The position numbers and the translations under genes are program-made. 64,000 nt of DNA from Escherichia phage Bp4: sequence record NC_024142.2; one strand, written 5' to 3'. Each line of letters opens with the position of its first letter. Within the stretch, counting starts at the first letter, position 1. Of the stretch, positions 24,896 through 40,042 are shown piece by piece. The notes beneath the pieces are model-generated. The model was given only the letters and a program-made list of their open reading frames with translations. It was not told the DNA's origin and ran no database searches.

Positions 24896-24955
24896 ACTGG
24901 CTTACTGTAGAGTAAGTTACCTATATACGATATAAGTTTGAACAGGAAACATGCT

Positions 24956-27900
24956 ATGTCAACATTTGACCGTCTGGCAGGTTTCGCAGACAGCATCACT
25001 AATGCTAAGCAAGTCGATGTCTCTACTGCAACCTCTCAGAAGCAAGCTGCACAAGGGCAAAGCCCTTTCCAATTAACCCCAGAGAATGCTTACAATCTCC
25101 AGACTGGACGAGTAGGTAATCTTGGAATCGGTGCATTCGAACCAGGTTCACTTCAGGCAGATTTCACTCAAGCCTCCCCATTAGAAATCATTAATAAGTA
25201 CGGTAATGAGCAAGGTTTACAAATTCTTAATAGCCGAGCTAATGCTGCTGATGTTGTACGTCAGGACTTATCTAAACAACGTACTAACGCAGAAGCATTT
25301 GGCGATACTCTTTCTGGTGTTGGTCTTGGTGTTGCTAATACCCTTGGGGGCATTGCTGCTCTTGGTACAGGCTTGGTCAATGATAATGCCGGGGCATCCA
25401 TTGCTTCCGGTCTTGACTGGTTGAATAAAGGTGTACACAACCTACAGTCTGATGCACTGAATGCTCGTCGTAATGTAGTACAGAACCAGAACGTAATATC
25501 TGCTCAAGAGAATGAGAAACTCTATAAGCAAGATATTGCTAAAGGAGAAAGTGAACTCGTTGCTTCTCTGTCTCGTATTGGACGAGATGCCTATGATTCT
25601 GTTGCTAACACCCTGTCTAATGACATGGCTGCTACAGATGGCCTGGCTGAAGGTGTTGGTTCATTCTTTACTGGCGGTCCACTTATCCGTGGTGTATCTG
25701 CACTTGGTAAAGTAATGGTAGGTGGTGATAAAGCTGTTAAGGGTATTACCTTAGCTGCTGAATTAGGTTATCGTCCTGCACGTATTGCACAGACTGCTGG
25801 TCGTGTTGCTGCACCTGCTATAGCAATTGGTGGTATGGAAGCTGGTGGTGCATACCAACAGACTGCTAATGAAATTATGGAAATGCCATTCAGTGAACTG
25901 GCTGCTAAATCTCCTGTATACCAACAGCATATTAAAGACGGTCTGTCTCCTGAAGAAGCACGTCGCCAGACTGCATCTGAAACAGGTATCACTGCTGCTG
26001 GCTTAACTGCTCCAGTTGCTGCTCTTACTGCTCCACTGGTATCCAAGTTTGAACTTAACCCACTTAAGGTAGGTTCACTGGCTGGTGCTGGTTCTAACAT
26101 GCTGCGTGAGACTGTAGAAGAAGGTATCCAGTCTGGTACAAGTCAGTTTGCACAAAACAAGGCAATTCAGGGCAATGTAGATGCTGAGCGTGATTTGCTT
26201 AAAGGTGTGGGTGAACAAACTGGTCTGGGTGCATTGTATGGCTTCGGTTCTGCTGGAGTTGCTCAAGCTCCTGGTGCAACTGTTAAGGCTGCTGGTGCTG
26301 CCGTTGGTCCTGCTGTACGTACTACCCTGGCTGGTGCTTCTTTGGCTGGTAAGGCACTAGCAAAAGTAGCTTCACCTATTACTAACATCCTGGTTCAACG
26401 TGGGGAAGAAGTTGCTAAGCGTAATGAACAAGCATCCCCCGTATCTGATGCTACGGTTAACGCTGCTGCACAAGAAGCTACTGCTCAGGCAGAACAAGCT
26501 CAAGCAACTGTTCAGGAAGCAGTGGATGCAATGGATATTTCTCCAGAAGAGAAAGCTGCTGCTACCCAGTATGCTGCTGACTTAACTCAGGCAATGAAGT
26601 TTGACCCGGTAGAATTGGAACAAACTAACCCAGCAATCCGTGAAGCTGTTTCTGGTTCCACTAACCGTGTAGAAGCTATTCAGAAGATGGCTGACTTGGT
26701 TAATACTGCCGAAGACCCTAACGTTCAAATGGAAGCTGCAATCCAGATGTATGACAATATCATGTCTATGGATAGCTTCATTAACCGTGACCCGGGTGCT
26801 TTGGCTAATCTGGAACAAGGTTCCCCTGCTGCTGCAATCGTAGACCAATTCTCCGGCCTGATGGCTAACGTACAGAATACCCCTAAAGTACTCCGTGCAT
26901 TTCGTGCCATCCATTCCATGATTCAGGAACAGGCTGAAGCGGGTAAGCTGAAAGCTACTGAAGAAGCTAATCAAGCCCAAGCAAACAACATTGCTATGGC
27001 TGCTGATGTATCTCCAGAAGTGCTGGATGCAGATTCAGTGAACATGGTTCTGAAACATGCAAGTGAAGGTAAGATTACACTGGGGAATCGTCAACGTGCT
27101 GCCCTGCAATCTGCTGCTGCCTTATTACAGGGTGCACGAGAGTTCGACGCTAAAGCAGAAGAACTAGGCTTACGTCCTCAAGATATTGTTAGTAAACAGA
27201 TTAAAACCGATGAGTCTCGTTCTAATGAAGGACAGTACTCTGCGTTGCAACATGCGAAACGCATTCGTTCTGCGTATAACTCTGGTAACTTCGATTTGGC
27301 CTCCGCTTATCTGAGCGATTTTATGAAGTTCGCCCAGCACATGCAGAATAAGGTCGGAGCGTTGAATGAGCATCTGATTTCGGGGAATGCGGATAAGAAT
27401 AAGTCTGTTCATTATCAGGCTCTCTCGCCTTCCCGTGAATGGGTACGTAGTCGTACTGGCCTCGGTGTCAATCCTTACGATACCAAGTCTGTTAAGTTTG
27501 CCCAGCAAGTAGCACTGGAAGCTAAGACCGTAGCTGACATTGCTAACGCACTTGCTACGGCTTACCCGGAGCTTAATGTTTCTCATGTGAAAGTTACCTC
27601 GTTGGATTCACGTCTGAACAAGCCAGCTGCCCAGGTAGTTAAAGAGTTCCGTCAAGGTGGTCTTGATGCCACTCAGTCTCAACAGACTAATGAACCAGTG
27701 AATCAGGTTGATGAAACTCCTGCACTAGTGCAAGAGGACACCACTACTGTACAGCCTAAAGATAAACTAGTGGTAGAAAATAAGACTGCTCCTACTAAAG
27801 AGACTAGTCCAAAAGCAGAAGAAGTCTCTACTACTGAATCTGAAAGAGATGCTTATGTGAAAGAAAATACTATTTCACAGGAAATTCTTAATAAGAATGG

Positions 27901-30900
27901 TGACCGTAGAGAAAGCCCTTGGTTGTTTGCTGATGGTACTGTGGTTGGTTCTAATGGCGACCATATCAGCCTGTCCGACGTATTTGGGCATGATGGTTAT
28001 CGTGATATGTCTCTGGATACTGGTGCTATTCGCTCTACCTTCTATAAAGGTAGTGAGCAACCATTTGTATCTCTGCAACTGTTTGATAATCAGAAACTGA
28101 CTGCTGAACAATTCAATACTGTTCAATCTTTCGTTGAAGCAAACAATGCACTGATTCAGGTTGGTGTAGATACGTCTGGGCGTAATACCAATAATGTTGA
28201 GAAGGAAGAAGTATCACTAGCTCAACTGAAAGCAGACTATACCGTCGGTGGTAAACCTCTATCGGAAATGGAAACAGTGTTCCCTGTTTATAACAATGAC
28301 AAGACACCGAACCAGTTCATTAAATCATTCTCTCTTCCAGAAGAACCTAAGTCTCGTACCATTGGTTCCGAATCTCCTTTGACTGATGTTAAGAAAGCAC
28401 TGTCTTCTGCTGCTCGCTTTGAAGCATTTACTCAAAAAGAAAATAACGCTCTCACAAGTGATGTGATTAAGCGTTACCAGGACTTATTTGAGTTTGGTGA
28501 AACTCTGAAGACTACTCTGTCTGACCGTCTGGCTAAGTTCCTTGCTAACAAGAACGTTGGTAAACGTTTTGCGGAAGGTACTGAGGCTAACCGTTGGGTA
28601 GGTGGTAAGTTACTTAACATCGTAGAGAAAGATGGTGACACCTTTAAGTTCAATGACCAGCTATTAGAAACTGCTGTACTTGCTGGTCTGCAATGGCGAT
28701 TGACTGCTACACAGAATGCTGCTGTTAAAGACATGAAAGACGTAGCTGCTATTACTGGTGTGGAAGCATCTCTGCTACCAGAAGGTATTCTGGCTGACTT
28801 CGAGAATGCTCAGACCCTGGTTGAAGCTACTAACTCACTAGCTCAAAAGATTGAATCCTATTGGGGTTTGAATCGTAATCCTAATGCACCTTTGGGGTAT
28901 ACCAAGGGTATCCCAATGGCAATGGCTACAGAGATTCTGTCTTCCCTTATTGAGATGGGTGAAGTTAAAGAGTCCATGTTAGATGTGTCTGAGATTGACC
29001 CAGAATCTAATAAGACTGTTGGTCTGTATACCATTGAGAAGCTGGATGATAACGATGCCATTAATAAATTCCCTACTGCTATTGAGGAAACTGTCCTTTT
29101 AGAACCAGTAGAGAAATTGTATCTGGGTGATGACATTCCTTCCGTGGCTCAAACTCAGTTACGTAACCCGGCTGTTAAGAATACCCCGGAACAGAAAGCT
29201 GCTCTCAAAGCAGAACAAGCTACTGAGTTTCGTGTACATATGCCGATGGTTAATTTCTATGAAGCATTGGGTCGTGACAACATTCTGGAGTTAATGGGTG
29301 CTGGTGCTCTTAATCCAGAATTGCTGAATGTGAATACTGCTAAGTCTCTGGAAGGTAAAAACCTGTCCGTGTCCATGGCGTATGATTCCTTGTTTGGTGT
29401 AATCAATCAAATTAAGGAACAGGAGAATGGACTGGATACACCTATTCACTATGGCTACAACATGACCCGTGTAGGTCGTATGCAGATGCTTGGTAAGAAC
29501 AACCCACAGTCCAGCAAACTGGTACGTGAAGCAATCTTACCAACCTTCTCTACCATCGACTTGAGTAATGAAAACAGTCAAACGTTCTCTGACTTCCAGT
29601 TAGGTCTGGCTCAGGCATTGGGCATCAAAGTTCATAAAATGTCCCGTGAAGTTATGTCGGATGAGCTGACTAAAGCTCTGGAAGGTAAATTGAAACCTGC
29701 CGTTGATATGATGGTCGAGTTTGATAAGTCTGGTCACTTACCTGCTGATGCAGTGGATATTCTGAAGACTTCCTTGGGGAATGATAAATCATTCGTAGCT
29801 CTTATGGCCCTGATGGAATATGCCCGTTACCTGAATAGTGATGATCGTGCCAACTTTAATACCCCACTGTACGTTGAAGCCGATGGTGTAACCAATGGAC
29901 CAATTAACGCAATGGTATTAATGACTGGTGGTAAGTTTACTTCAGACTGGATTAAGAATACTGCTAAGGGTGGTTTGTTCTTTGGTAAAGCTGGCAAGAC
30001 TATGAACGAACACCATTCGCACGAGGATAGTGTTGACCTGTATGAAGCATCCACTAATAGTCTGCAACAGGCACTGAATGAATTACGTAATAATTACCGT
30101 AACAACGTTCCTGTTACGAATCAGATGAAGCATCTTCAGAAGTTAATGGACCTGTTCATTAAAGACTTCAATCTTAATGAAGATGGTACTCTGGACCTGA
30201 AACGTGGTATCGCTAAAAACCCACTGACCATTACCATCTATGGTTCTGGTGCTCGTGGTATTGCTGGCAAAATGGTAAGTGCAATTACTGATACCATCTA
30301 CGAACGCTTCAGTGACGTTCTACAAGCCCGTGCTGCTGACCCTAGCATTTCCCCAGCTATGGCTATGTTTGGTAAGGAGGCTGCGTCTGAGGCTGATGCT
30401 CAGGCTATGCTGGATACTTTCCTTACTTCTATGGAAGCACTAACTGGTAATGTTCCGGTTATGCGTAAAGGTGAGTTGTCTATTCAGCAGGTAGATGGTG
30501 CTCTGACTGGTAAGTTAGACCCTCAGAAGTTTACTGTATCCGGTAATGCTCTGAAGAACTTACAAGAGAACATGCTTCATCTGTTCGTTGAACCAATGCG
30601 TACTGGTATCCGAAATACCGTGGGTGAAGGTCTGATGTACTCTACTGAGAACTTGCAGAAAGCTACCCAGATTCAATCTCTGGTTCTGCAAGACATGTTC
30701 CAGCAACGTGTTCAGGAGAAACTGGCAGAAAAAGAAAAAGACCCAACATGGAAGAAGGGTGATTTCTTAACACAGAAAGAACTGAATGAAATCCAGGCTT
30801 CATTATCTCCACTGGCTCCAATGATTGAGACTGGTTCACAGACTTTCTACATTGCTGGTAGTGAGAATACTGATGTTGCTAACCAAGTATTGGCTACCAA

Positions 30901-33900
30901 CTTAGATGACCGTATGCGTGTGCCAATGAGCATCTATGCTCCTTCACAGGCAGGTGTAGCAGGTATTCCATTTATGACCATCGGTACAGGTGATGGCATG
31001 ATGATGCAGACCCTTTCTACTATGAAAGGTGCTCCGAAGAATACCCTGAAAATCTTTGATGGTATGAACATTGGTATTAATGACATTACTGATGCAAGCC
31101 GTAAAGCTAATGAGGCTGTATATACTTCCTGGCAGGGTAACCCTATCAAGAATGTTTATGACTCCTTTGCTAAGTTCATGAAGAACGTAGACTTCAGCAA
31201 ACTGTCTGATGAAACCAAACAAGCTATCGCTAAATCTGCACTGGAATACGACCAACGTGAGGGTGCTACTGATGACCTGTTACGTGTTGGTGCTGAACAG
31301 ATTGAACGTAATCTGCGTAACATTGCTCTGGGTGTGGATATTCGTCATAAGGTAATGGACCAGGTACAGGTCACTGTTGACCAGATGGCTGCTGTTGGTG
31401 CTCCTTATGTGAACAACGGTAAAATCTCTCTGGAAGGTCTGACTGTAGACCAGCAAGTAGCTAAGCTGAACGAACTGTTTGATGCTGAATTAAACAAGCG
31501 TCGTGATGCAGTACGTGCTGCTAAAGCAGAACCAGTGAAAGAAGTGCCAGCAATGGAACAGGTCGGTCGTGTACTGAAGTCTGGTGTACGTCTGCTGTCT
31601 AATGCTGCCATTACTAAACTGGCTAAAGAGATGTCCCCTGAACAACAAGCAGTACTGAAAGAAATACAGAAATCTCTTGCTGCTAAAGACTATAAGGTTG
31701 TTTATGGTACGCCTTCTCAACTGGATGCCTATGCTATTGAGAAGAACATTACTCGTCCAGCACCGGAAGATATTGAAGCTGCTGAAGCAGGTAATGCATA
31801 TGGCTGGACTAACTTTGAAGATAAAACCATCTACTTAGTTACCCCTTCCTTAGAGACTCTGGTTCATGAATTGGTACATGCCTCTACTTTTGAATCTGTA
31901 CTAGCTCACTACGAGGGTACTCCTAACGAAGCAGTCCAGAATATTGAAGACCTGATGAACCAGTTCCGTGCTCTTGATGTTAAGAATGAATCTCCGGCAG
32001 TACGTGAAGCATATGCCGATGCACTCAATACCATTAATGGCCACTTGTCCAATGGCTTTATTGAACCAGCAATGGCTAAAGCTGCTGCACTGAATGAGTA
32101 CATGGCTTGGGGTTTAACTAACCGTGAACTTATAAGTAAGCAGAAGAAAACCACTGCACTTAAAACTATGGTTCAGGCTGTATATGAAGCAATCAAACGT
32201 CTGGTATTCGGACGTAAGAAAGCTCCTGCTAATGCAGATGATATGTTCTCTGGCTTACTGTTTAACTCTGCTGTAGTAATGCGTGGGCAGGCTCCTACTG
32301 CTGCTGTAGCCAAAGATACTACCTTGTTCCATAACAAAGCATACGGTGACAATACTCGTCTGGAAGAGCTAGGGAAAACCTTCGATAAGCTGATTACTAA
32401 CTACATTGGTTCAGAACCAGTACAGCAAGTAATTCGTAAAGGTAAGTTCTCTGATGCAGTAGTAAAAGCAACTAAAGTAACTCGTGATGTTCAGGCTCAT
32501 GGCTTCACCATGAATATGCAGGAACAGCGTCTCTTCACTAACATTGTTGCTGCACTAGCTACTGAGGCTGCTATTAACCCTGCTGCTATGGCTCGTGCAC
32601 AGGAATACTACACGCATGTTACTAAGAACCTGACTGTTGAAGCGTTCATGGCTGACCCGGATAGTACTAACCCTGCTGACCGTTACTATGCACAGCAGAA
32701 GTTCGATACCATCATGGGTGCTAATAACATTGAGTTTGATGCACAGGGTCGTTCTTCCTTACTACCTACCTTTGTTGGTCTGGTAATGGTAAGTGAAGAA
32801 GTACGTAAGGTGCTGGCTGATATTTCTGTTATGAAAGCAGATAAAAAATCTGGCAATACTGTTGATGCAATGCTGACTAACATCGGTACTGCTGCAATGG
32901 CTAGTCTGAATGCTCGTGTAGCAGGTGATACTAAAGCCACTAACGTACAGGAAGGTATGGATGCACTGGCTCAGACAATCATGCAGACCAGTCTTAACGC
33001 AGAATCCTTCTATGATTCCGTTGCTACTCCTACCGGTAATGCTATCGACCGTGCTAACCAGTATTTGGTGGACTCTATTGATGCATTGTCTACCCGTGCT
33101 TTAGAAGGTGCTCGTGAAGTTGCAGCTAATACCAAGAATCCATTGGTCAAAGGTGCTGCTCATGCTGCACAACTGGTAGCTGCTATTGCTACAGAGAAGA
33201 ATGGTGCAATCGTAGCCGAAGGTGTTATGGCTGCAATGAACCAGGGTAAAGTATGGCAACCTTTCCATGACCTGGTTAATGACATAATTGGACGTACTAA
33301 GAGCAATGCTTCTGTATATGATTTGATTAAAGCAGTACGAGCACAAGTGCAGGCTGACCGTCAACAGTTCCGTGAACACTTGCCTACCACTATCGCATCC
33401 AAGTTCAGCCGTAAACTGACTAATGATGAGTGGAAAGCAATGCATACCGGTATGGGTAAAACTGACTTAGCTGTTCTGCGTGACACTATGTCTTTGGATG
33501 AAATCCGTGACCTGCTGACTGACCAGAAGAATGTTGACCGTGAGGTTAATAAACTGGAAGCAGATTTGCAGAAACAAGCAGGACGTAACTGGCCCCTGAT
33601 TAACCGTAAATCTAAGCAACTGGCTCAGTATATGATTAACGGTACAGTCGGTAATAACCTGCTGCGTAATGCTACTGCAATTTCTCGTTTACTGGGTGAA
33701 CGTAAGACTACACGTTCTGTTGTAGATGTAGCTCAGCTGGATAAACTGATTACCCTGTATGCACTGGAAGCAATGAGTAAGACTGACCGTGAGGTGTTAT
33801 CTTCACTGGCTCAGACAGAAGTTGAAGGCATGGACTTTGCTACTTCTTACCTGGTTGGTCAGCGTAAAGACGAAATGGCTAAAGCCAAGTCTGATAGCCG

Positions 33901-35668
33901 TGCAACCTTGAACCAGTACAAAGGATACATCCCAACTGAGAACAAACAGGGTGTTAACCTGATTGTTGCTGAAGATAATCAGTTTGCTGATTTGATTGAG
34001 AAATCCTATGTACGTCTTGGTACTTATCAGGGTAGCTCTGCTAACCGGGGTCCAGCACGTAGTTACTACTTTGCACCGGTACAGGCACAGGCTCCGTTCT
34101 CACAAGGTATCCTACAGAACGTTCGAAATACTGCTGGTGGTGTAGACCTTGGTACAGGCTTTACGATGGGAACCATGGTAGCTGGTCGTATTACTGACAA
34201 GCCTTCCGTAGACCGTATCACTAAAGCACTGGCTCGTGGTGAACGTGGCAATGAACCACTGCTGCCTGTATATGATGCTAATGGTAATGTAGTTGCTTAT
34301 GAGCAATCTATTGACCCTAACATGCTGAAGCACATTGAGGGTGAGAATCATCTTGCTCGTGCAATCGGTGTATGGCGTGGTCGTCAGGTGGAAGAAGCTA
34401 AGGCTCAGCGTTTCAACGATATGCTAATTGAGAACCTGCATAGCATGTATGAGAACGACATTAAGATGTCTGCTTCTAATAAGTCCCAGTACGTTAACCT
34501 TCTTGGTTCTAAACTGGACCCAGTAACTGCCGATGCCCTTAAGCTGATGAACAGTGAAACTCGTCAGAAAGCAGAAAGTCTCTTTGGTCCAGGTGAATTG
34601 TGGGTGCGTCGTGACATGCTTAATGATGCTCTGGGTTATCGTGCAGCTTCTGTAGGAGATGCCTGGTCTGGTAATTCTCGTTGGTCACCAGAAACACTGG
34701 ATACCTTCAAGAAAGCTATGTTGGGTGTATTCGGCAACCGTGCCTATAAGTATGTAATGGGTGGTGAGAACCTGGTTCAGAACTTAGTTAAAGAAGCTAA
34801 GACCCTGATTGTAGTTAAGTCAGTAGTTGTACCTGCTGTTAACTTCCTGGCTAACCTTTACCAGATGGTTGCTCGTGGTGTACCTGTTAAGAACATTGCT
34901 AAGAGCATCCCACAAAAAACTGCTGAGATTAACCAGTATCTGAAATCTCGTCTGCGTCAGGTAGATGCAGAAGCAGAATTACGTGCAGCTACTAACCCGA
35001 ACCAGATTCGTAAACTCAAGGCTGAGATTCAGTCCATCTCTGATAGCCATAAACGTTTGAGTATCTGGCCTCTGTTGGAAGCTGGTGAGTTCTCTTCAAT
35101 TGCAGATGCTGGTATTGGCCGTGATGACATCCTGATTACTGAAGGTAAACTCCACGAATACATGGAAAAGCTGGCTGATAAGCTGCCTAAGTCTGTTCGT
35201 AACGCAGGTCGCTATGCACTTATCACTAAGGATACTGCTCTCTTCCAGGGTATTCAGAAGACGGTTGAGTACTCTGACTTTATTGCTAAAGCAATCATCT
35301 ATGATGAACTGACTCAGCGTAAAGGTAAGACTCGTGAAGAAGCACTGGGGCGTGTAACGGAAGAGTTCATTAACTATGACCGTCTGCCTGGTCGATTCCG
35401 TGGGTATATGGAAAGTGTTGGTTTGATGTGGTTCTACAACTTTAAGATTCGTTCTGCAAAAGTTGCAGTGTCCATGATTCGTAATAACCCAGTACATGCT
35501 GCTATGGCTATGTTGGCTCCAACCCCTACCATGTTTGGTAACGTTGGTCTTCCTATTCAGGACAACATCTTTAGTATTGCTGCACAAGGCAATCTTGGTT
35601 ACTCCTTTGGTTTCGGTCAAGGCTTACGTGCCCACAACCTGAACCCTTGGCTCAACCTTACTAACTAA
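24956..35668 (+). CDS. giant virion-encapsidated RNA polymerase (N4 vRNAP-like)
   Basis: Single uninterrupted ~3570-aa ORF in the virion module; size and position are diagnostic of N4-like phages; ATG at 24956 with RBS AGGAAAC. Confidence 0.8.
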   Translation: MSTFDRLAGFADSITNAKQVDVSTATSQKQAAQGQSPFQLTPENAYNLQTGRVGNLGIGAFEPGSLQADFTQASPLEIINKYGNEQGLQILNSRANAADVVRQDLSKQRTNAEAFGDTLSGVGLGVANTLGGIAALGTGLVNDNAGASIASGLDWLNKGVHNLQSDALNARRNVVQNQNVISAQENEKLYKQDIAKGESELVASLSRIGRDAYDSVANTLSNDMAATDGLAEGVGSFFTGGPLIRGVSALGKVMVGGDKAVKGITLAAELGYRPARIAQTAGRVAAPAIAIGGMEAGGAYQQTANEIMEMPFSELAAKSPVYQQHIKDGLSPEEARRQTASETGITAAGLTAPVAALTAPLVSKFELNPLKVGSLAGAGSNMLRETVEEGIQSGTSQFAQNKAIQGNVDAERDLLKGVGEQTGLGALYGFGSAGVAQAPGATVKAAGAAVGPAVRTTLAGASLAGKALAKVASPITNILVQRGEEVAKRNEQASPVSDATVNAAAQEATAQAEQAQATVQEAVDAMDISPEEKAAATQYAADLTQAMKFDPVELEQTNPAIREAVSGSTNRVEAIQKMADLVNTAEDPNVQMEAAIQMYDNIMSMDSFINRDPGALANLEQGSPAAAIVDQFSGLMANVQNTPKVLRAFRAIHSMIQEQAEAGKLKATEEANQAQANNIAMAADVSPEVLDADSVNMVLKHASEGKITLGNRQRAALQSAAALLQGAREFDAKAEELGLRPQDIVSKQIKTDESRSNEGQYSALQHAKRIRSAYNSGNFDLASAYLSDFMKFAQHMQNKVGALNEHLISGNADKNKSVHYQALSPSREWVRSRTGLGVNPYDTKSVKFAQQVALEAKTVADIANALATAYPELNVSHVKVTSLDSRLNKPAAQVVKEFRQGGLDATQSQQTNEPVNQVDETPALVQEDTTTVQPKDKLVVENKTAPTKETSPKAEEVSTTESERDAYVKENTISQEILNKNGDRRESPWLFADGTVVGSNGDHISLSDVFGHDGYRDMSLDTGAIRSTFYKGSEQPFVSLQLFDNQKLTAEQFNTVQSFVEANNALIQVGVDTSGRNTNNVEKEEVSLAQLKADYTVGGKPLSEMETVFPVYNNDKTPNQFIKSFSLPEEPKSRTIGSESPLTDVKKALSSAARFEAFTQKENNALTSDVIKRYQDLFEFGETLKTTLSDRLAKFLANKNVGKRFAEGTEANRWVGGKLLNIVEKDGDTFKFNDQLLETAVLAGLQWRLTATQNAAVKDMKDVAAITGVEASLLPEGILADFENAQTLVEATNSLAQKIESYWGLNRNPNAPLGYTKGIPMAMATEILSSLIEMGEVKESMLDVSEIDPESNKTVGLYTIEKLDDNDAINKFPTAIEETVLLEPVEKLYLGDDIPSVAQTQLRNPAVKNTPEQKAALKAEQATEFRVHMPMVNFYEALGRDNILELMGAGALNPELLNVNTAKSLEGKNLSVSMAYDSLFGVINQIKEQENGLDTPIHYGYNMTRVGRMQMLGKNNPQSSKLVREAILPTFSTIDLSNENSQTFSDFQLGLAQALGIKVHKMSREVMSDELTKALEGKLKPAVDMMVEFDKSGHLPADAVDILKTSLGNDKSFVALMALMEYARYLNSDDRANFNTPLYVEADGVTNGPINAMVLMTGGKFTSDWIKNTAKGGLFFGKAGKTMNEHHSHEDSVDLYEASTNSLQQALNELRNNYRNNVPVTNQMKHLQKLMDLFIKDFNLNEDGTLDLKRGIAKNPLTITIYGSGARGIAGKMVSAITDTIYERFSDVLQARAADPSISPAMAMFGKEAASEADAQAMLDTFLTSMEALTGNVPVMRKGELSIQQVDGALTGKLDPQKFTVSGNALKNLQENMLHLFVEPMRTGIRNTVGEGLMYSTENLQKATQIQSLVLQDMFQQRVQEKLAEKEKDPTWKKGDFLTQKELNEIQASLSPLAPMIETGSQTFYIAGSENTDVANQVLATNLDDRMRVPMSIYAPSQAGVAGIPFMTIGTGDGMMMQTLSTMKGAPKNTLKIFDGMNIGINDITDASRKANEAVYTSWQGNPIKNVYDSFAKFMKNVDFSKLSDETKQAIAKSALEYDQREGATDDLLRVGAEQIERNLRNIALGVDIRHKVMDQVQVTVDQMAAVGAPYVNNGKISLEGLTVDQQVAKLNELFDAELNKRRDAVRAAKAEPVKEVPAMEQVGRVLKSGVRLLSNAAITKLAKEMSPEQQAVLKEIQKSLAAKDYKVVYGTPSQLDAYAIEKNITRPAPEDIEAAEAGNAYGWTNFEDKTIYLVTPSLETLVHELVHASTFESVLAHYEGTPNEAVQNIEDLMNQFRALDVKNESPAVREAYADALNTINGHLSNGFIEPAMAKAAALNEYMAWGLTNRELISKQKKTTALKTMVQAVYEAIKRLVFGRKKAPANADDMFSGLLFNSAVVMRGQAPTAAVAKDTTLFHNKAYGDNTRLEELGKTFDKLITNYIGSEPVQQVIRKGKFSDAVVKATKVTRDVQAHGFTMNMQEQRLFTNIVAALATEAAINPAAMARAQEYYTHVTKNLTVEAFMADPDSTNPADRYYAQQKFDTIMGANNIEFDAQGRSSLLPTFVGLVMVSEEVRKVLADISVMKADKKSGNTVDAMLTNIGTAAMASLNARVAGDTKATNVQEGMDALAQTIMQTSLNAESFYDSVATPTGNAIDRANQYLVDSIDALSTRALEGAREVAANTKNPLVKGAAHAAQLVAAIATEKNGAIVAEGVMAAMNQGKVWQPFHDLVNDIIGRTKSNASVYDLIKAVRAQVQADRQQFREHLPTTIASKFSRKLTNDEWKAMHTGMGKTDLAVLRDTMSLDEIRDLLTDQKNVDREVNKLEADLQKQAGRNWPLINRKSKQLAQYMINGTVGNNLLRNATAISRLLGERKTTRSVVDVAQLDKLITLYALEAMSKTDREVLSSLAQTEVEGMDFATSYLVGQRKDEMAKAKSDSRATLNQYKGYIPTENKQGVNLIVAEDNQFADLIEKSYVRLGTYQGSSANRGPARSYYFAPVQAQAPFSQGILQNVRNTAGGVDLGTGFTMGTMVAGRITDKPSVDRITKALARGERGNEPLLPVYDANGNVVAYEQSIDPNMLKHIEGENHLARAIGVWRGRQVEEAKAQRFNDMLIENLHSMYENDIKMSASNKSQYVNLLGSKLDPVTADALKLMNSETRQKAESLFGPGELWVRRDMLNDALGYRAASVGDAWSGNSRWSPETLDTFKKAMLGVFGNRAYKYVMGGENLVQNLVKEAKTLIVVKSVVVPAVNFLANLYQMVARGVPVKNIAKSIPQKTAEINQYLKSRLRQVDAEAELRAATNPNQIRKLKAEIQSISDSHKRLSIWPLLEAGEFSSIADAGIGRDDILITEGKLHEYMEKLADKLPKSVRNAGRYALITKDTALFQGIQKTVEYSDFIAKAIIYDELTQRKGKTREEALGRVTEEFINYDRLPGRFRGYMESVGLMWFYNFKIRSAKVAVSMIRNNPVHAAMAMLAPTPTMFGNVGLPIQDNIFSIAAQGNLGYSFGFGQGLRAHNLNPWLNLTN

Positions 35669-35675
35669 ATGAAAA

Positions 35676-35705
35676 AGCCCCTCTAATGAGGGGCTTTTAT
35701 TTTTA
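35676..35705. terminator. bidirectional intrinsic terminator
   Basis: 8-bp stem AGCCCCTC/GAGGGGCT, loop TAAT, A-run upstream and TTTTATTTTT downstream; between convergent genes. Confidence 0.75.
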
Positions 35706-36194
35706 CTGAGCTAACACCCAATCTTCTGCTAATACATCTGATTGAGATGGAACCCATGGCATAAACTGGTTATCAACGGTTTTAATACCCAGCCAATCCC
35801 GTTTCTCACAAACGGTATTTTCATGTTTATCCATGGCCCAATTTTCACCAGATACTAAGGTGATATACATTCCTTTTCCGTTCCAACCTTTACGGGTCAT
35901 TCTAAAGCCTGATTTGAGAATCTCTACTGCATGACCAAAGGTACAACCTTTTTCTACGTCACGGTATGCAGCTTCGAATGTAGCTTTAGGTGACCAGCTA
36001 ATATAGCCACGGAATTGGGGATGGTTGGACTTAGAGTCTGGATACTCGACTAAGTAGCCTTCTTCTAGCGGGTCTTCATCTGCTGGTACATCCCAACCAC
36101 GAAGTTTGCAGTATGTTTCTTTGCTCATCGGGAAACCATTTACACACTTGGTTCCAATGTAGTTGGTGAAATGGACTTTAATTTCTTCTGACAT
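35703..36194 (-). CDS. DUF2829/Tad2-like domain protein (candidate anti-Thoeris sponge) with N-terminal extension
   Basis: C-terminal ~80 aa: AVEILKSGFRMTRKGWNGKGMYITL … PWVPSQSDVLAEDWVL matches my recollection of the DUF2829 motif; start taken at MSEEIKV with GAGG RBS. Confidence 0.45.
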   Translation of the reverse strand: MSEEIKVHFTNYIGTKCVNGFPMSKETYCKLRGWDVPADEDPLEEGYLVEYPDSKSNHPQFRGYISWSPKATFEAAYRDVEKGCTFGHAVEILKSGFRMTRKGWNGKGMYITLVSGENWAMDKHENTVCEKRDWLGIKTVDNQFMPWVPSQSDVLAEDWVLAQ

Positions 36195-36211
36195 AACTAC
36201 CTCAAATGAGA

Positions 36212-36240
36212 AAGCCCTCACTAGGAGGGCTTGTTTTGTT
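36212..36240. terminator. terminator-like hairpin between two minus-strand accessory genes
   Basis: AGCCCTC-ACTAG-GAGGGCT followed by TGTTTTGTTTT on plus and TTTCTCATTT on minus. Confidence 0.4.
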
Positions 36241-36312
36241 TTGGCTTCATGAGCTTACTACTTTGTCGGGTAGTTCAGTACCTTTCGGTAAAAACTACCA
36301 TACACCTTTGAA

Positions 36313-36693
36313 TCAAATTGTACAACCACCACCATCACAGGTATTGTTTTCTGCAAAGGAAGCCAAAGCTTTAGCAGTCTCTTCCTTCTCATGCAGTGCC
36401 TGACGTAGTAGGTAGCCCTCTAATTCCCAAATCTTATTGAATGCATTTTCATATGCATACTGGCGACCTAACTGCTCATCATAGATAGTTGGGTCTACGC
36501 AAGCAGATACACCTTCAACTTTAAAATTGTTTTCCAGAATGATAACACAATAGGTTACCAGACCCAGGTTAGCCAAATCATCTGCCGGGAGTGCAGAAGG
36601 ATCAACGAATGCAGATTTCACTGCATCAGCACCATTAAAATAGTAAACGCTCTTAATCTTAGCTTCGATTGCTTCTTTACTTACTGTTGCCAT
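36313..36693 (-). CDS. hypothetical accessory protein
   Basis: ORF with start at MATVSKEA; contains YYFNGADAV … ENAFNKIWELEGY; no confident family. Confidence 0.5.
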   Translation of the reverse strand: MATVSKEAIEAKIKSVYYFNGADAVKSAFVDPSALPADDLANLGLVTYCVIILENNFKVEGVSACVDPTIYDEQLGRQYAYENAFNKIWELEGYLLRQALHEKEETAKALASFAENNTCDGGGCTI

Positions 36694-36751
36694 TATTAGC
36701 CTCATAGAGTGGTTTGAATTTGTACTTAAGCATGATTGCGTTCATCAATAC

Positions 36752-36783
36752 TCAAATAAAAAAGTCCCTCCGAAGAGGGACTT
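36752..36783 (-). terminator. intrinsic terminator ending the tRNA-region transcript
   Basis: Minus strand stem GTCCCTC-TTCG-GAGGGAC followed by TTTTTTATTTG. Confidence 0.7.
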
Positions 36784-37009
36784 AGTAGCTTTAACGCAGC
36801 TAACGAGGCTAGGCCAGTTAACTATTACCACCGGTGCTTGTACCAGCAAACAGGATTGATAGTCCGATAATAGTTAACTGTAATTGAGCATTATAGTCTG
36901 CTCATACTCACACCGTTAGGTATGTTTTCAATAATTAGAGTGCCGGACTGTCTCACCGGCATTGTCTTTAGAGTGCAATGCAATCAGGACTATGTTCTCT
37001 ATTAATAAG

Positions 37010-37083
37010 TACCCACTACTGGATTTGAACCAGTGACCTTCCGATTATTAGTCGGTTGCTTTCCCCGTCTAAGCTAAGTGGGC
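37010..37083 (-). tRNA. tRNA, canonical cloverleaf; anticodon loop CUAAUAA, isotype uncertain
   Basis: Hand fold: acceptor GCCCACU/AGUGGGU, D-arm GCUU/AAGC, anticodon stem with one mismatch, T-arm ACUGG-UUCAAAU-CCAGU; no encoded CCA. Confidence 0.5.
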
Positions 37084-37457
37084 ATAAATGAGTGAGTCAT
37101 GCCAGACTTTAACTGGCTCCTTCTTCGCAATCCTTACATACCCCTACATAATTATTGCGTTAAGCTTATATTGTTTAAGTTTAAGTGAAGGCGTTCTTGC
37201 TGACTCATAATAGGGTGGGCGTTTGACGAATGACTAGTTCGTTACTACCCGTTTGCCATAAGTACCTGGCGACTTTGGTTTGAGGCGGGAGTCCGAGTCC
37301 TGTACAGCCTTACCGTTCACACATTGGCAGCGTATCTAGAATAGCACTTCCGGCAACTGGATTTAACTGTTACACCCCAAATCTGGTAGGGGCGTCCAGA
37401 AGTCTCATCTGGTACTTACGCCGTCGTATGGTTACGACTTACCCCCATAATCTTTCT

Positions 37458-37529
37458 AATTCAAAGTAGCACTGCTCCATGTTTGGCCTTTGAACTCCGG
37501 GATGGATTAGTGCAATGCTACTTTGAATT
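37458..37529. repeat. 14-bp perfect inverted repeat with 44-nt spacer
   Basis: AATTCAAAGTAGCA at 37458-37471 and TGCTACTTTGAATT at 37516-37529, abutting a tRNA-like 3' end. Confidence 0.6.
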
Positions 37530-37615
37530 GGTTACCAGTGAGGGATTCGAACCCCCGGTTGGAGTCTATAGCTTACCGCAGCAGCTCTCCAATCTAGCGG
37601 TGTCACACTTAGTCC
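37529..37615 (-). tRNA. tRNA-like element (T-arm, 3' acceptor strand and encoded CCA; no canonical 5' half found by eye)
   Basis: GGGGG-UUCGAAU-CCCUC then ACUGGUA-A-CCA; upstream region does not fold into D or anticodon arms. Confidence 0.3.
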
Positions 37616-37653
37616 AAACTTGAACATATCAAGCTATCTCGTGCAACTGATAA

Positions 37654-37719
37654 TTGGTTCCGGCGTCTGGACTCGAACCAGAACACTTATGCCGTGCACG
37701 ACACTAGTACCTACACCGG
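37654..37719 (-). tRNA. tRNA-like minihelix (7-bp acceptor, T-arm, CCA; about 10 nt too short for a cloverleaf)
   Basis: Acceptor UCCGGUG/CGCCGGA, T-arm UCUGG-UUCGAGU-CCAGA, A-CCA; internal 29 nt have no stems. Confidence 0.3.
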
Positions 37720-37795
37720 AATTAATTGCCAGGGATTCCACCTGGTCCATCTGTTTTTATAGTCACTCAGATATCGTCTGGACTGTAGGCATGGG

Positions 37796-37871
37796 TGGGA
37801 ATCGAACCCACAAACCATTCAGCACTGTAGCCTCACGCTCTACCTATTTGAGCTATCACACACCATTGATT
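37796..37871 (-). tRNA. tRNA-like element (canonical D-arm and T-arm; acceptor and anticodon stems not pairable)
   Basis: D-arm UAGCUCAAAUAGGUAGAGC and T-arm GUGGG-UUCGAUU-CCCAC present. Confidence 0.3.
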
Positions 37872-38156
37872 AACTCCCCGTTTCTAATACACGGACGAGG
37901 ACACTCCATGGTCGTTTGATAATCAGGACGACTCACTCCCGACTGACGCTTGGCTTATTAGGCTGCCATCAGAACAACATCATCGTTTGCATTTATGTTA
38001 TTGGTTCGTTTCTAAAAAACCGCATAATCGCTTACGAAAACTATCAAAGAGTACACTAAGCACAGGTAGCTACCCTGCCGTCTTCTCCACCTACACCGGC
38101 TACAGTGTAAACCTCCGCACGTTAGCTTAATGTACTCATTGATAGGATGTCAGTAG

Positions 38157-38226
38157 GTCGGGGGCTGGATTCGAACCAGCGAGAGAAGTAGCGACCATCT
38201 GCACATGCCTACGTGCTACCTCGACC
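38157..38226 (-). tRNA. tRNA-like element (acceptor with one mismatch, D-arm, T-arm; anticodon region 2-3 nt short)
   Basis: GUCGAGG/CCCCGAC, D-arm GCAC-GUAGGCAU-GUGC, T-arm GCUGG-UUCGAAU-CCAGC. Confidence 0.3.
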
Positions 38227-38401
38227 ATTATAATAGGAGGGAGGGGACGAGTCCTCCCTTTATACCCTATATTGCATGTAAGACCTAACAATTCGATGCT
38301 GTAGGTAGCTATGCTATCCGACATTTAACCCAGCCATATAGGGCTTATGTGATTAAAATGCTCAACATTGAGCGGTTAGTTTGATAAGGGATCTGAAGCC
38401 T

Positions 38402-38429
38402 TATCCCAAAGATACTAACCTTTGGGATA
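38402..38429. other. 10-bp stem hairpin in non-coding region
   Basis: TATCCCAAAG-ATACTAAC-CTTTGGGATA. Confidence 0.5.
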
Positions 38430-38610
38430 TAGCCTATCATTCAGAAATGGCCCCTATAGGGAGAGGCCATTGATTAACCCGAATGTTGCTTTACATTTTC
38501 TGTGATAACCCATTCTTAAAATAGTTTACCTGACGGATGGGGGCCACCCCTAGCGTCAGTGCCATACGGCAAAGATTAAGTTAAGAAAGGTTATGATAGG
38601 AGTTCCTATC

Positions 38611-38811
38611 TCAAAGGATTCTAACAGAACCCTTCACGATATTAACTACTCTTTTTAATGCTTCTACTTCACCCTCTCTATACCAAGCATATGGTACTAA
38701 GATTTTGCAGCCTTCTGATTCAATGTGAAATGCTTTCTTTCCTTCAACGGGTTCTCCACCCATGAAAGAACTAACCTTTCCATTGAGCCAGTGAATAGTA
38801 AATTTGTTCAT
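38611..38811 (-). CDS. hypothetical small protein
   Basis: 66-aa ORF (MNKFTIHWLNGK…) with upstream GAGA RBS-like element. Confidence 0.45.
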   Translation of the reverse strand: MNKFTIHWLNGKVSSFMGGEPVEGKKAFHIESEGCKILVPYAWYREGEVEALKRVVNIVKGSVRIL

Positions 38812-39045: not shown

Positions 39046-39486
39046 TTAACTACGTTTAAGGCCAGCGAACAGTGAAGGCTTAGTAGCAGGTTTCTCTGCT
39101 GGTTCTTCAGCCTTAGCCTCTTCCTGCACAACTTCTTCTTGTGCTTCTGGTTCAGATACTGCTTCTTCTTCAGGTTCCGGCGTAGAACTCTCGTTCTGAC
39201 CACCAGTAGAGGTCTGGGTTTCTTCTACCTTTACCTCTTCAACTACTTCTTCCGGCTCTGGTTCTACCGGACGATGTTTAGCTTCCTGTGGGTTCTTACG
39301 AGAACGACGAGTTTTCTTCTCTACTCCCACGGGTGGAGTATCTTCATGAACCTCTTCGTTGATACCAACGGAAGCTGTACCGTCTGCATTGATGACAATA
39401 TTGATGTCACCAGCAAGATTGATTTGATCATCGACATAAGCCTGTACAGCAGCTTCTACTTCGGACTGGTTCAAAATGATTTGCAT
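39046..39486 (-). CDS. acidic protein with Glu/Pro-rich tail
   Basis: C-terminal ~70 aa are E/P/V-rich (EPEPEEVVEEVKVEETQ…). Confidence 0.5.
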   Translation of the reverse strand: MQIILNQSEVEAAVQAYVDDQINLAGDINIVINADGTASVGINEEVHEDTPPVGVEKKTRRSRKNPQEAKHRPVEPEPEEVVEEVKVEETQTSTGGQNESSTPEPEEEAVSEPEAQEEVVQEEAKAEEPAEKPATKPSLFAGLKRS

Positions 39487-39487
39487 G

Positions 39488-40042
39488 TTACGCCTTTATT
39501 AAATTAAGGAGGTTTTGGAAAGCTGGGAGATTTACACCAGCATGGATTGCACCGATTGCATCAGCTAAGTGCTCATTCTTATTCAGAAGTTTGCCCTTCT
39601 TATCTGTGAGCCAGTTGGCTTCAGGATAGATGGCATGAGCAGCACGAATCATCGTGTCCTTAGATGCAGTTTTATCACCGACCAGTGCAAGTTTGTTTTC
39701 AATTGGGGATACTTCAAAGATTGGACAACCCAATGCACGAAATGCACCTATTAATCCTACGCATACGCCATAGGATTTCATACCGTTAGCAGACTGAGAG
39801 CCTACTGGTACTTCTACGAATACTGCTTTAGCAGACCGTAACCATTCCTCACAACCAAGAAACAAATCGTGAGCGGCTTGTATATCTTTGGAGTTGGTTC
39901 GAACTTGTTTGTTGTGGTCAACTTCAGTTTGAACCAGTTTAAGTTCGACCTGCTCGAAGACGCCGGACTCAATGTCCAGCATCCCACGAGCTAAACCCCA
40001 ATTGCGGAGACTAATGTCTGCACCGACAATTGGGATTTTCAT
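39488..40042 (-). CDS. RuvC-like Holliday junction resolvase
   Basis: N-terminal IVGADISLRNWGLA, FVEVP, C-terminal HLADAIGAIHAG, paralleling RuvC catalytic motifs. Confidence 0.7.
   Translation of the reverse strand: MKIPIVGADISLRNWGLARGMLDIESGVFEQVELKLVQTEVDHNKQVRTNSKDIQAAHDLFLGCEEWLRSAKAVFVEVPVGSQSANGMKSYGVCVGLIGAFRALGCPIFEVSPIENKLALVGDKTASKDTMIRAAHAIYPEANWLTDKKGKLLNKNEHLADAIGAIHAGVNLPAFQNLLNLIKA

Follow-up and report, generated by a model that had tools for sequence, protein, structure and literature searches.

The question raised by this locus is what is encoded by a small minus-strand gene at positions 36313-36693 of the DNA of Escherichia phage Bp4 (sequence record NC_024142.2; the window analysed is the whole stretch of 64,000 nucleotides), which lies beside a gene whose product carries a Tad2-like domain. 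A first-pass annotation had described the 126-aa product as a protein of no recognisable family, located in a terminator-bracketed islet and representing a candidate partner of the Tad2-like protein or a candidate independent counter-defence gene. The analysis presented here makes it highly probable that the product of this gene is a nucleotide-signal sponge of the Acb4 family (PF13876), carried by an N4-like coliphage. Its family membership, its relation to the structurally solved founder of the family, its fold, and its orthology and synteny with gp48 of phage N4 are established below, and the protein itself is already known, as its exact sequence has been catalogued as an Acb4 homolog.

The open reading frame (ORF) extends on the minus strand from the ATG at 36693 to the TGA at 36315-36313 and specifies 126 aa, and the peptides quoted in the first-pass annotation agree exactly with this translation. 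A Shine-Dalgarno-like GAGG motif can be read from the sequence at 36700-36703 on the same strand, six bases 5' of this ATG. An alternative in-frame ATG at 36705 would yield a 130-aa product; the start at 36693, unlike that at 36705, is the position used in relatives and in UniProt entries, in agreement with the N-termini of the relatives. The notion that the frame is spurious or decaying and devoid of function can be dismissed for practical purposes because of its conservation, which covers the full length in 106 relatives, down to 46% identity. The tblastn matches, spread over 739 phage records of many genera, together with the strong family match, the ribosome-binding site, and the confident predicted model, likewise speak against a chance frame.

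With respect to family assignment, the product matches the Pfam family PF13876 (Phage_gp49_66, 'N4 Gp49/Sf6 gene 66') with E=1.5e-25 and 89.9 bits, the gathering cut-off being 27 bits. The match covers positions 2-82 of the 82-position profile and residues 5-100 of the target, leaving residues 101-126 as a tail, and PF13876 is present in all 106 database relatives. PHROG 322 is matched at E=1.2e-44. No other Pfam family was matched at E<=1, Tad2 (PF11195) and Sequestin (PF21825) being absent. In two preprints, PF13876 has been equated with the Acb4 family of sponges directed against the cyclic oligonucleotide-based antiphage signalling system (CBASS) (10.1101/2024.12.30.630793; 10.1101/2025.07.12.664507), and the identical 126-aa sequence is contained in Table S3 of Chang et al. 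under the accessions A0A385IEE4 (phage PD38) and J9RVQ1 (phage ECBP1). Furthermore, the automated annotation of phage Mimir124 tags the orthologs of both genes of the pair as anti-defence ('phrog:acr'), and another related phage record cites an InterPro family for the ortholog. When the PDB was searched with the single sequence, insignificant matches alone were obtained (Acb4, E=0.96; peptide deformylase, E=0.47), and the Acb4 match can be trusted only because of the profile search and the fold search. A profile of 43 relatives matched the Acb4 structure of phage SPO1 (PDB 9E4W) at E=1.9e-6, which is the sole significant sequence match in the PDB. The Pfam and PHROG matches, the table of Acb4 homologs, and the remote-homology search all contradict the orphan status initially given to this protein.

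The founder of the family, gp1.3 of phage SPO1, is a sponge for 3'3'-cGAMP, a cyclic dinucleotide built from GMP and AMP, and was named Acb4 (Chang et al., bioRxiv 10.1101/2024.12.30.630793). In the same study, its tetramer with bound cGAMP was solved (PDB 9E4W) and the protein was placed in PF13876, with 1,331 homologs. All eight diverse homologs tested, a set that does not necessarily include an N4-type protein, bound cGAMP, while none bound c-di-GMP; the tested homologs from phages of Gram-negative hosts also bound 3'3'-cAA (3'3'-c-di-AMP, a cyclic di-AMP), and some homologs were reported to possess extensions of unknown role (10.1101/2024.12.30.630793). The tetrameric state is supported by AlphaFold 3 models of eight homologs and by size-exclusion chromatography with multi-angle light scattering of the Acb4 domains of SPO1 and Ab09 (10.1101/2024.12.30.630793; 10.64898/2026.06.04.730250).

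The predicted structure of the Bp4 protein leads to the same family. The AlphaFold2 monomer model, for which the input alignment of relatives was made without the N4 sequence, has a mean predicted local distance difference test score (pLDDT) of 88.9 and comprises strands at residues 13-20, 46-53, and 58-64 and a long helix at residues 73-115, corresponding to the Acb4 protomer fold of a three-stranded antiparallel sheet, flanking helices, and a long C-terminal helix. In a Foldseek search against the PDB, the best 13 matches are all chains of 9E4W, with a probability of 1.00 and target-normalised template modelling (TM) scores of 0.64-0.73, and the next match has E=0.32. Structure prediction therefore also places the protein with Acb4, contrary to the description of a protein without a family.

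The genomic context connects the gene with phage N4. The 1.7 kb around it shares 99.9% identity with Escherichia phage PD38 and 99.3% with ECBP1, two N4-like podophages (Schitoviridae, Enquatrovirinae, Gamaleyavirus). A 3576-aa ORF at 24938-35668 on the plus strand is the virion RNA polymerase (vRNAP), and the acb4 and Tad2-like genes lie on the opposite strand, converging on its 3' end. In N4, the order is gp48 (123 aa, PF13876 at E=8.8e-35) followed by gp49 (160 aa, Tad2-like), again converging on the vRNAP gene, gp50. Over the full length, the target shares 47% identity with N4 gp48, and its Tad2-like neighbour is 89% identical to N4 gp49. The gene is accordingly the positional ortholog of N4 gp48, which is the same protein as Acb4(N4), UniProt A0MZD7, RefSeq EPNV4_gp48, and the 'N4 Gp49' behind the Pfam name of PF13876. 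The two orthologs share a beta1-beta2 connection longer than that of SPO1 Acb4, a C-terminal C-[DE]-G-G-G-C-x-I tail, and the position and orientation directly upstream of a DUF2829/Tad2 gene converging on the vRNAP gene. They differ in 53% of residues, including the pocket-aligned K58 (Thr in N4), Y71 (Phe in N4), and D72 (Asn in N4), and in the junction between the paired genes, which abut in N4 and lie apart in Bp4, where a conserved spacer of 118 nt containing two hairpins intervenes.

The N4 protein has been studied in vivo under the name 'Acb4(N4)'. Its knock-down restored the plating of N4 on hosts carrying Panoptes, and its expression alone triggered Panoptes toxicity, making it both necessary and sufficient for Panoptes activation (Nature 2025, PMC12657230). 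The region between the primase and vRNAP genes of N4-like phages has been described as a hotspot of anti-signalling genes, including those for Tad2, Tad3, Acb4, Sequestin, the RuvC-like Bes1, and Bes2 (10.64898/2026.06.04.730250). The target is a small phage protein encoded inside this hotspot next to a Tad2-domain gene, and related phage records are organised in the same way, with insertions of variable small genes. The gene pair is thus found at the same position in N4 and in related phages, and the term islet overstates the oddity of an arrangement that N4 carries in the same place, without an intervening hairpin. These data also bear on a housekeeping role: the Acb4 monomer resembles a dsRBD, a domain that binds double-stranded RNA, and a nucleic-acid-binding protein of this type might act on phage RNA or replication intermediates. 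Such a role is very improbable and was rejected, because Acb4 chains alone score in the fold search, with no dsRBD protein among the top PDB matches, and because the N4 ortholog acts as a signal sponge in vivo. In addition, the biochemistry of the Acb4 family is that of a nucleotide sponge, and the gene lies in a variable locus packed with other anti-signalling genes.

The neighbouring gene, as originally reported, is indeed Tad2-like and lies directly downstream of acb4, at 35703-36194 on the minus strand. It encodes 163 aa consisting of an N-terminal domain (residues 1-84), for which Pfam gave no match, and a Tad2 domain (residues 85-161; PF11195, E=3.2e-23); the N-terminal domain is unnamed and fusion-prone. 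In phages, Acb4 and Tad2 are adjacent or often fused, and one Acb4-Tad2 fusion has been found to block both CBASS and type I Thoeris (10.1101/2025.07.12.664507). Acb4-Tad2 and Acb4-Sequestin fusions, such as those of Pasteurella phage Pm86 and Pseudomonas phage Ab09 (gp59), likewise combine an Acb4 module with a Thoeris sponge module at one locus, and in N4-like phages the locus of the Acb4 fusion is the same primase-to-vRNAP hotspot as that considered here. Unlike in these fusions, Acb4 and Tad2 are separate genes in Bp4, and the Tad2 domain is joined to a different, unnamed N-terminal domain. As regards function, the guess of an independent anti-defence gene clustered with the Tad2-like gene is upheld because of the Acb4 family membership, the catalogue entry, and the N4 ortholog, despite the mistaken orphan premise from which it started. 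The reading of the protein as a physical partner subunit of Tad2 is unsupported and was rejected, as published work treats Acb4 and Tad2 as independent sponges for different signals.

Considering the preferred reading as an Acb4-family sponge, a mechanism can be proposed. The small protein would be produced in the middle phase of infection, from the strand that also bears the replication genes, and by analogy with the Acb4 proteins of SPO1 and N4 it would assemble into a homotetramer with deep pockets at the subunit interfaces. These pockets would sequester the cyclic dinucleotides made by host cGAS/DncV-like nucleotidyltransferases (CD-NTases), namely 3'3'-cGAMP and, for phages of Gram-negative hosts, c-di-AMP species, and it is proposed that CBASS effectors would therefore never be activated and would stay off. 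The adjacent Tad2-like protein would do likewise for the glycocyclic ADP-ribose (gcADPR) signals of Thoeris. We infer tetramer formation, the bound ligands, the timing of expression, and the effect in vivo from these analogies. The cost of such a strategy would be that the sponge can be detected by hosts in which Panoptes or Panoptoo guards a decoy pool of c-di-AMP. The decoy signal of Panoptes is 2'3'-c-di-AMP (2'3'-cAA) (PMC12657230; 10.64898/2026.06.04.730250). The decoy of Panoptoo is reported to be 3'3'-cAA, and Acb4 of Gram-negative phages is reported to trigger this system.

Several observations weigh against this interpretation. The sponge activity of this exact protein is predicted by analogy, and the support provided by N4 Acb4 is genetic, in the form of Panoptes activation, rather than ligand affinity. 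In phage Ab09, a deletion confined to the Acb4-Sequestin gene produced no sensitisation (10.64898/2026.06.04.730250), suggesting that the effect of Acb4 may be redundant. The remaining points concern the comparison with SPO1 Acb4, to which identity is approximately 21%. The two proteins belong to the same Pfam family and have the same fold, in which three antiparallel strands are combined with a long C-terminal helix; the stacking Phe and the conserved core motif T-x-C ... N-x-F-x-V-x-G-x-S ... G-R-x-x-A are likewise common to both. The ligand contacts compared were K36, F48, E49, V56, Y57, F62, N63, I66, T70, K81, and L89 of SPO1 Acb4, residues that set the specificity of the SPO1 protein and are not claimed as family-defining. 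Among these cGAMP contacts, the stacking F48 alone is kept (F57 in the target), and the guanine-reading residues K36 and E49 are replaced by L45 and K58, respectively. Conservative replacements are found at F62 (Y71), I66 (L75), and N63 (D72); further changes are V56 to C65, Y57 to V66, T70 to Y79, and K81 to E90, and the alignment at L89 is ambiguous. Within the N4-type subfamily, C65, V66, and Y71 are nearly fixed.

Differences in architecture add to those in the pocket. The target comprises 126 aa and SPO1 Acb4 96 aa; a helical insert that follows beta1 and a tail of 26 residues with a Cys pair are present in the target and not in SPO1 Acb4. A further difference is that the host of the target is Gram-negative, the group for which the tested Acb4 homologs also bind 3'3'-cAA. 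The beta1-beta2 connection, which bears K36 in SPO1, is longer in the target and is modelled as two short helices, its extra length depending on the alignment used. The C-terminal helix continues into residues 101-126, which end in C-D-G-G-G-C-T-I; this tail is modelled with low confidence, at a pLDDT of 53-60. A tail ending in C-x(2-4)-C-x-[I/L] and the longer beta1-beta2 connection occur together in 94 of 109 sequences. As a separate observation on the tail (36313-36390, minus strand), a terminal C-x(2-4)-C-x-[I/L] pattern is present in 95 of the 106 relatives, in variants such as CEGGGCTI, CESGACSI, and CDGCKI, and is missing from SPO1 Acb4 and from more distant relatives.

These features allow two further proposals on the ligand spectrum, which itself cannot be inferred from sequence. 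According to the first, N4-type Acb4 would be a structurally distinct variant whose insert may reshape the guanine pocket and whose Cys pairs may act in clamping or binding, a proposal that should be regarded as tentative and rather unlikely. The insert could remodel the guanine-reading pocket of SPO1 Acb4 and thereby alter the ligand spectrum, and between neighbouring protomers the terminal Cys pairs could build a second binding site or clamp the subunits together through a metal or a disulfide; nothing of this kind is on record for Acb4. The second proposal, an improbable one, is that the Acb4 fold has been retargeted, with a remodelled N4-type pocket mainly taking not cGAMP but another signal, such as isomers of c-di-AMP, cyclic trinucleotides, or Thoeris signals derived from NAD, in which case the label 'anti-CBASS' would be only partly apt. 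It is consistent with the lack of conservation of the base-reading residues of SPO1, whereas K58, C65, and V66 are nearly fixed in the subfamily, and with the longer beta1-beta2 connection and extra tail. It also fits the fact that what is known of N4 Acb4 comes from Panoptes, a system with a 2'3'-linked c-di-AMP as its decoy, and the reports that Acb4 of Gram-negative phages binds 3'3'-cAA and triggers Panoptoo. However, 3'3'-cGAMP was bound by all eight family homologs tested and also, though weakly, by the Acb4 domain protein of Ab09. Retargeting would moreover concern the ligand spectrum within the same mechanism and not another mechanism, leaving the assignment as an Acb4-family nucleotide-signal sponge as the preferred reading.

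The locus anatomy initially described is correct as to the ORF, the Tad2-like neighbour, and the hairpins, all of which were confirmed. Terminator-like hairpins are enriched in the surrounding 3 kb (13 found versus 2.4 expected). Of the two terminators said to bracket the gene (36212-36240 and 36752-36783), both correspond to hairpins, at 36212-36232 and 36762-36783; the second is convincing, and the first is weak on the strand of the gene. The hairpin at 36762-36783 (minus strand, 5' of the acb4 gene; -16.4 kcal/mol, z -3.6) is followed by the U-run UUUUUUAUUU, qualifies as a good minus-strand terminator, and probably ends an upstream tRNA-containing transcript. The hairpin at 36212-36232 (minus strand; z -2.0, poor U-tract) lies between the acb4 stop and the start of the Tad2-like gene, just upstream of the ribosome-binding site of the latter, and its sequence hardly varies among four related phages. 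The authors of the PhAPEC5 genome annotated equivalent terminators.

The spacer of 118 nt that separates the two genes (36195-36312, minus strand) has a mean column identity of 94% in four related phages, compared with approximately 85-88% for the wider region. It contains, in addition to the hairpin at 36212-36232, a conserved nested hairpin with a GAAA loop at 36264-36304 on the minus strand, shortly after the acb4 stop; the 121-nt intergenic fold has a free energy of -32.4 kcal/mol (z -2.5). No Rfam family was found for these conserved intergenic hairpins. The spacer, missing from N4, could act in processing or stability, or as a regulated terminator. Separately, a strong bidirectional terminator hairpin is located at 35673-35698, between the converging vRNAP and Tad2-like genes (-19.6 kcal/mol, z approximately -5.7 on both strands).

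Other parts of the hotspot contain additional features. A 184-aa ORF at 39488-40042 on the minus strand, beside the gene for the single-stranded DNA-binding protein (SSB), occupies the position of Bes1, where relatives annotate a RuvC-like resolvase. The next ORF, of 146 aa at 39046-39486 on the minus strand, is at the would-be Bes2 position, and its C-terminal half is acidic and of low complexity. Neither of these two ORFs has a Pfam or NCBIfam match; the NCBIfam search covered the target, the Tad2-like neighbour, and three other hotspot ORFs and gave no match. ARAGORN identified three tRNAs at 37009-38226 on the minus strand (Ile-aat, Cys-aca, and Ala-cgc), among which tRNA-Ile was the only element above the gathering threshold in an Rfam scan of 35600-38700. 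Little of the approximately 1.8 kb between acb4 and the next convincing gene is coding, and the same holds for the corresponding gap of 1.5 kb in N4.

The 'orphan' label proves false, as the gene can be placed fully by a routine Pfam scan together with the literature of 2024-2026. Little is added to the biology beyond the occurrence of the gene pair and its predicted profile of defence and sensitivity, the sole remaining threads being the features of the subfamily, namely the insert and the tail, and the unnamed domain of the neighbour. Coliphages of the Gamaleyavirus type bear the same pair of Acb4 and Tad2 as N4. From this pair, resistance to CBASS and type I Thoeris is to be expected, together with sensitivity to Panoptes and Panoptoo, the systems that sense sponges; this predicted sensitivity is relevant to the choice of such phages for therapy.
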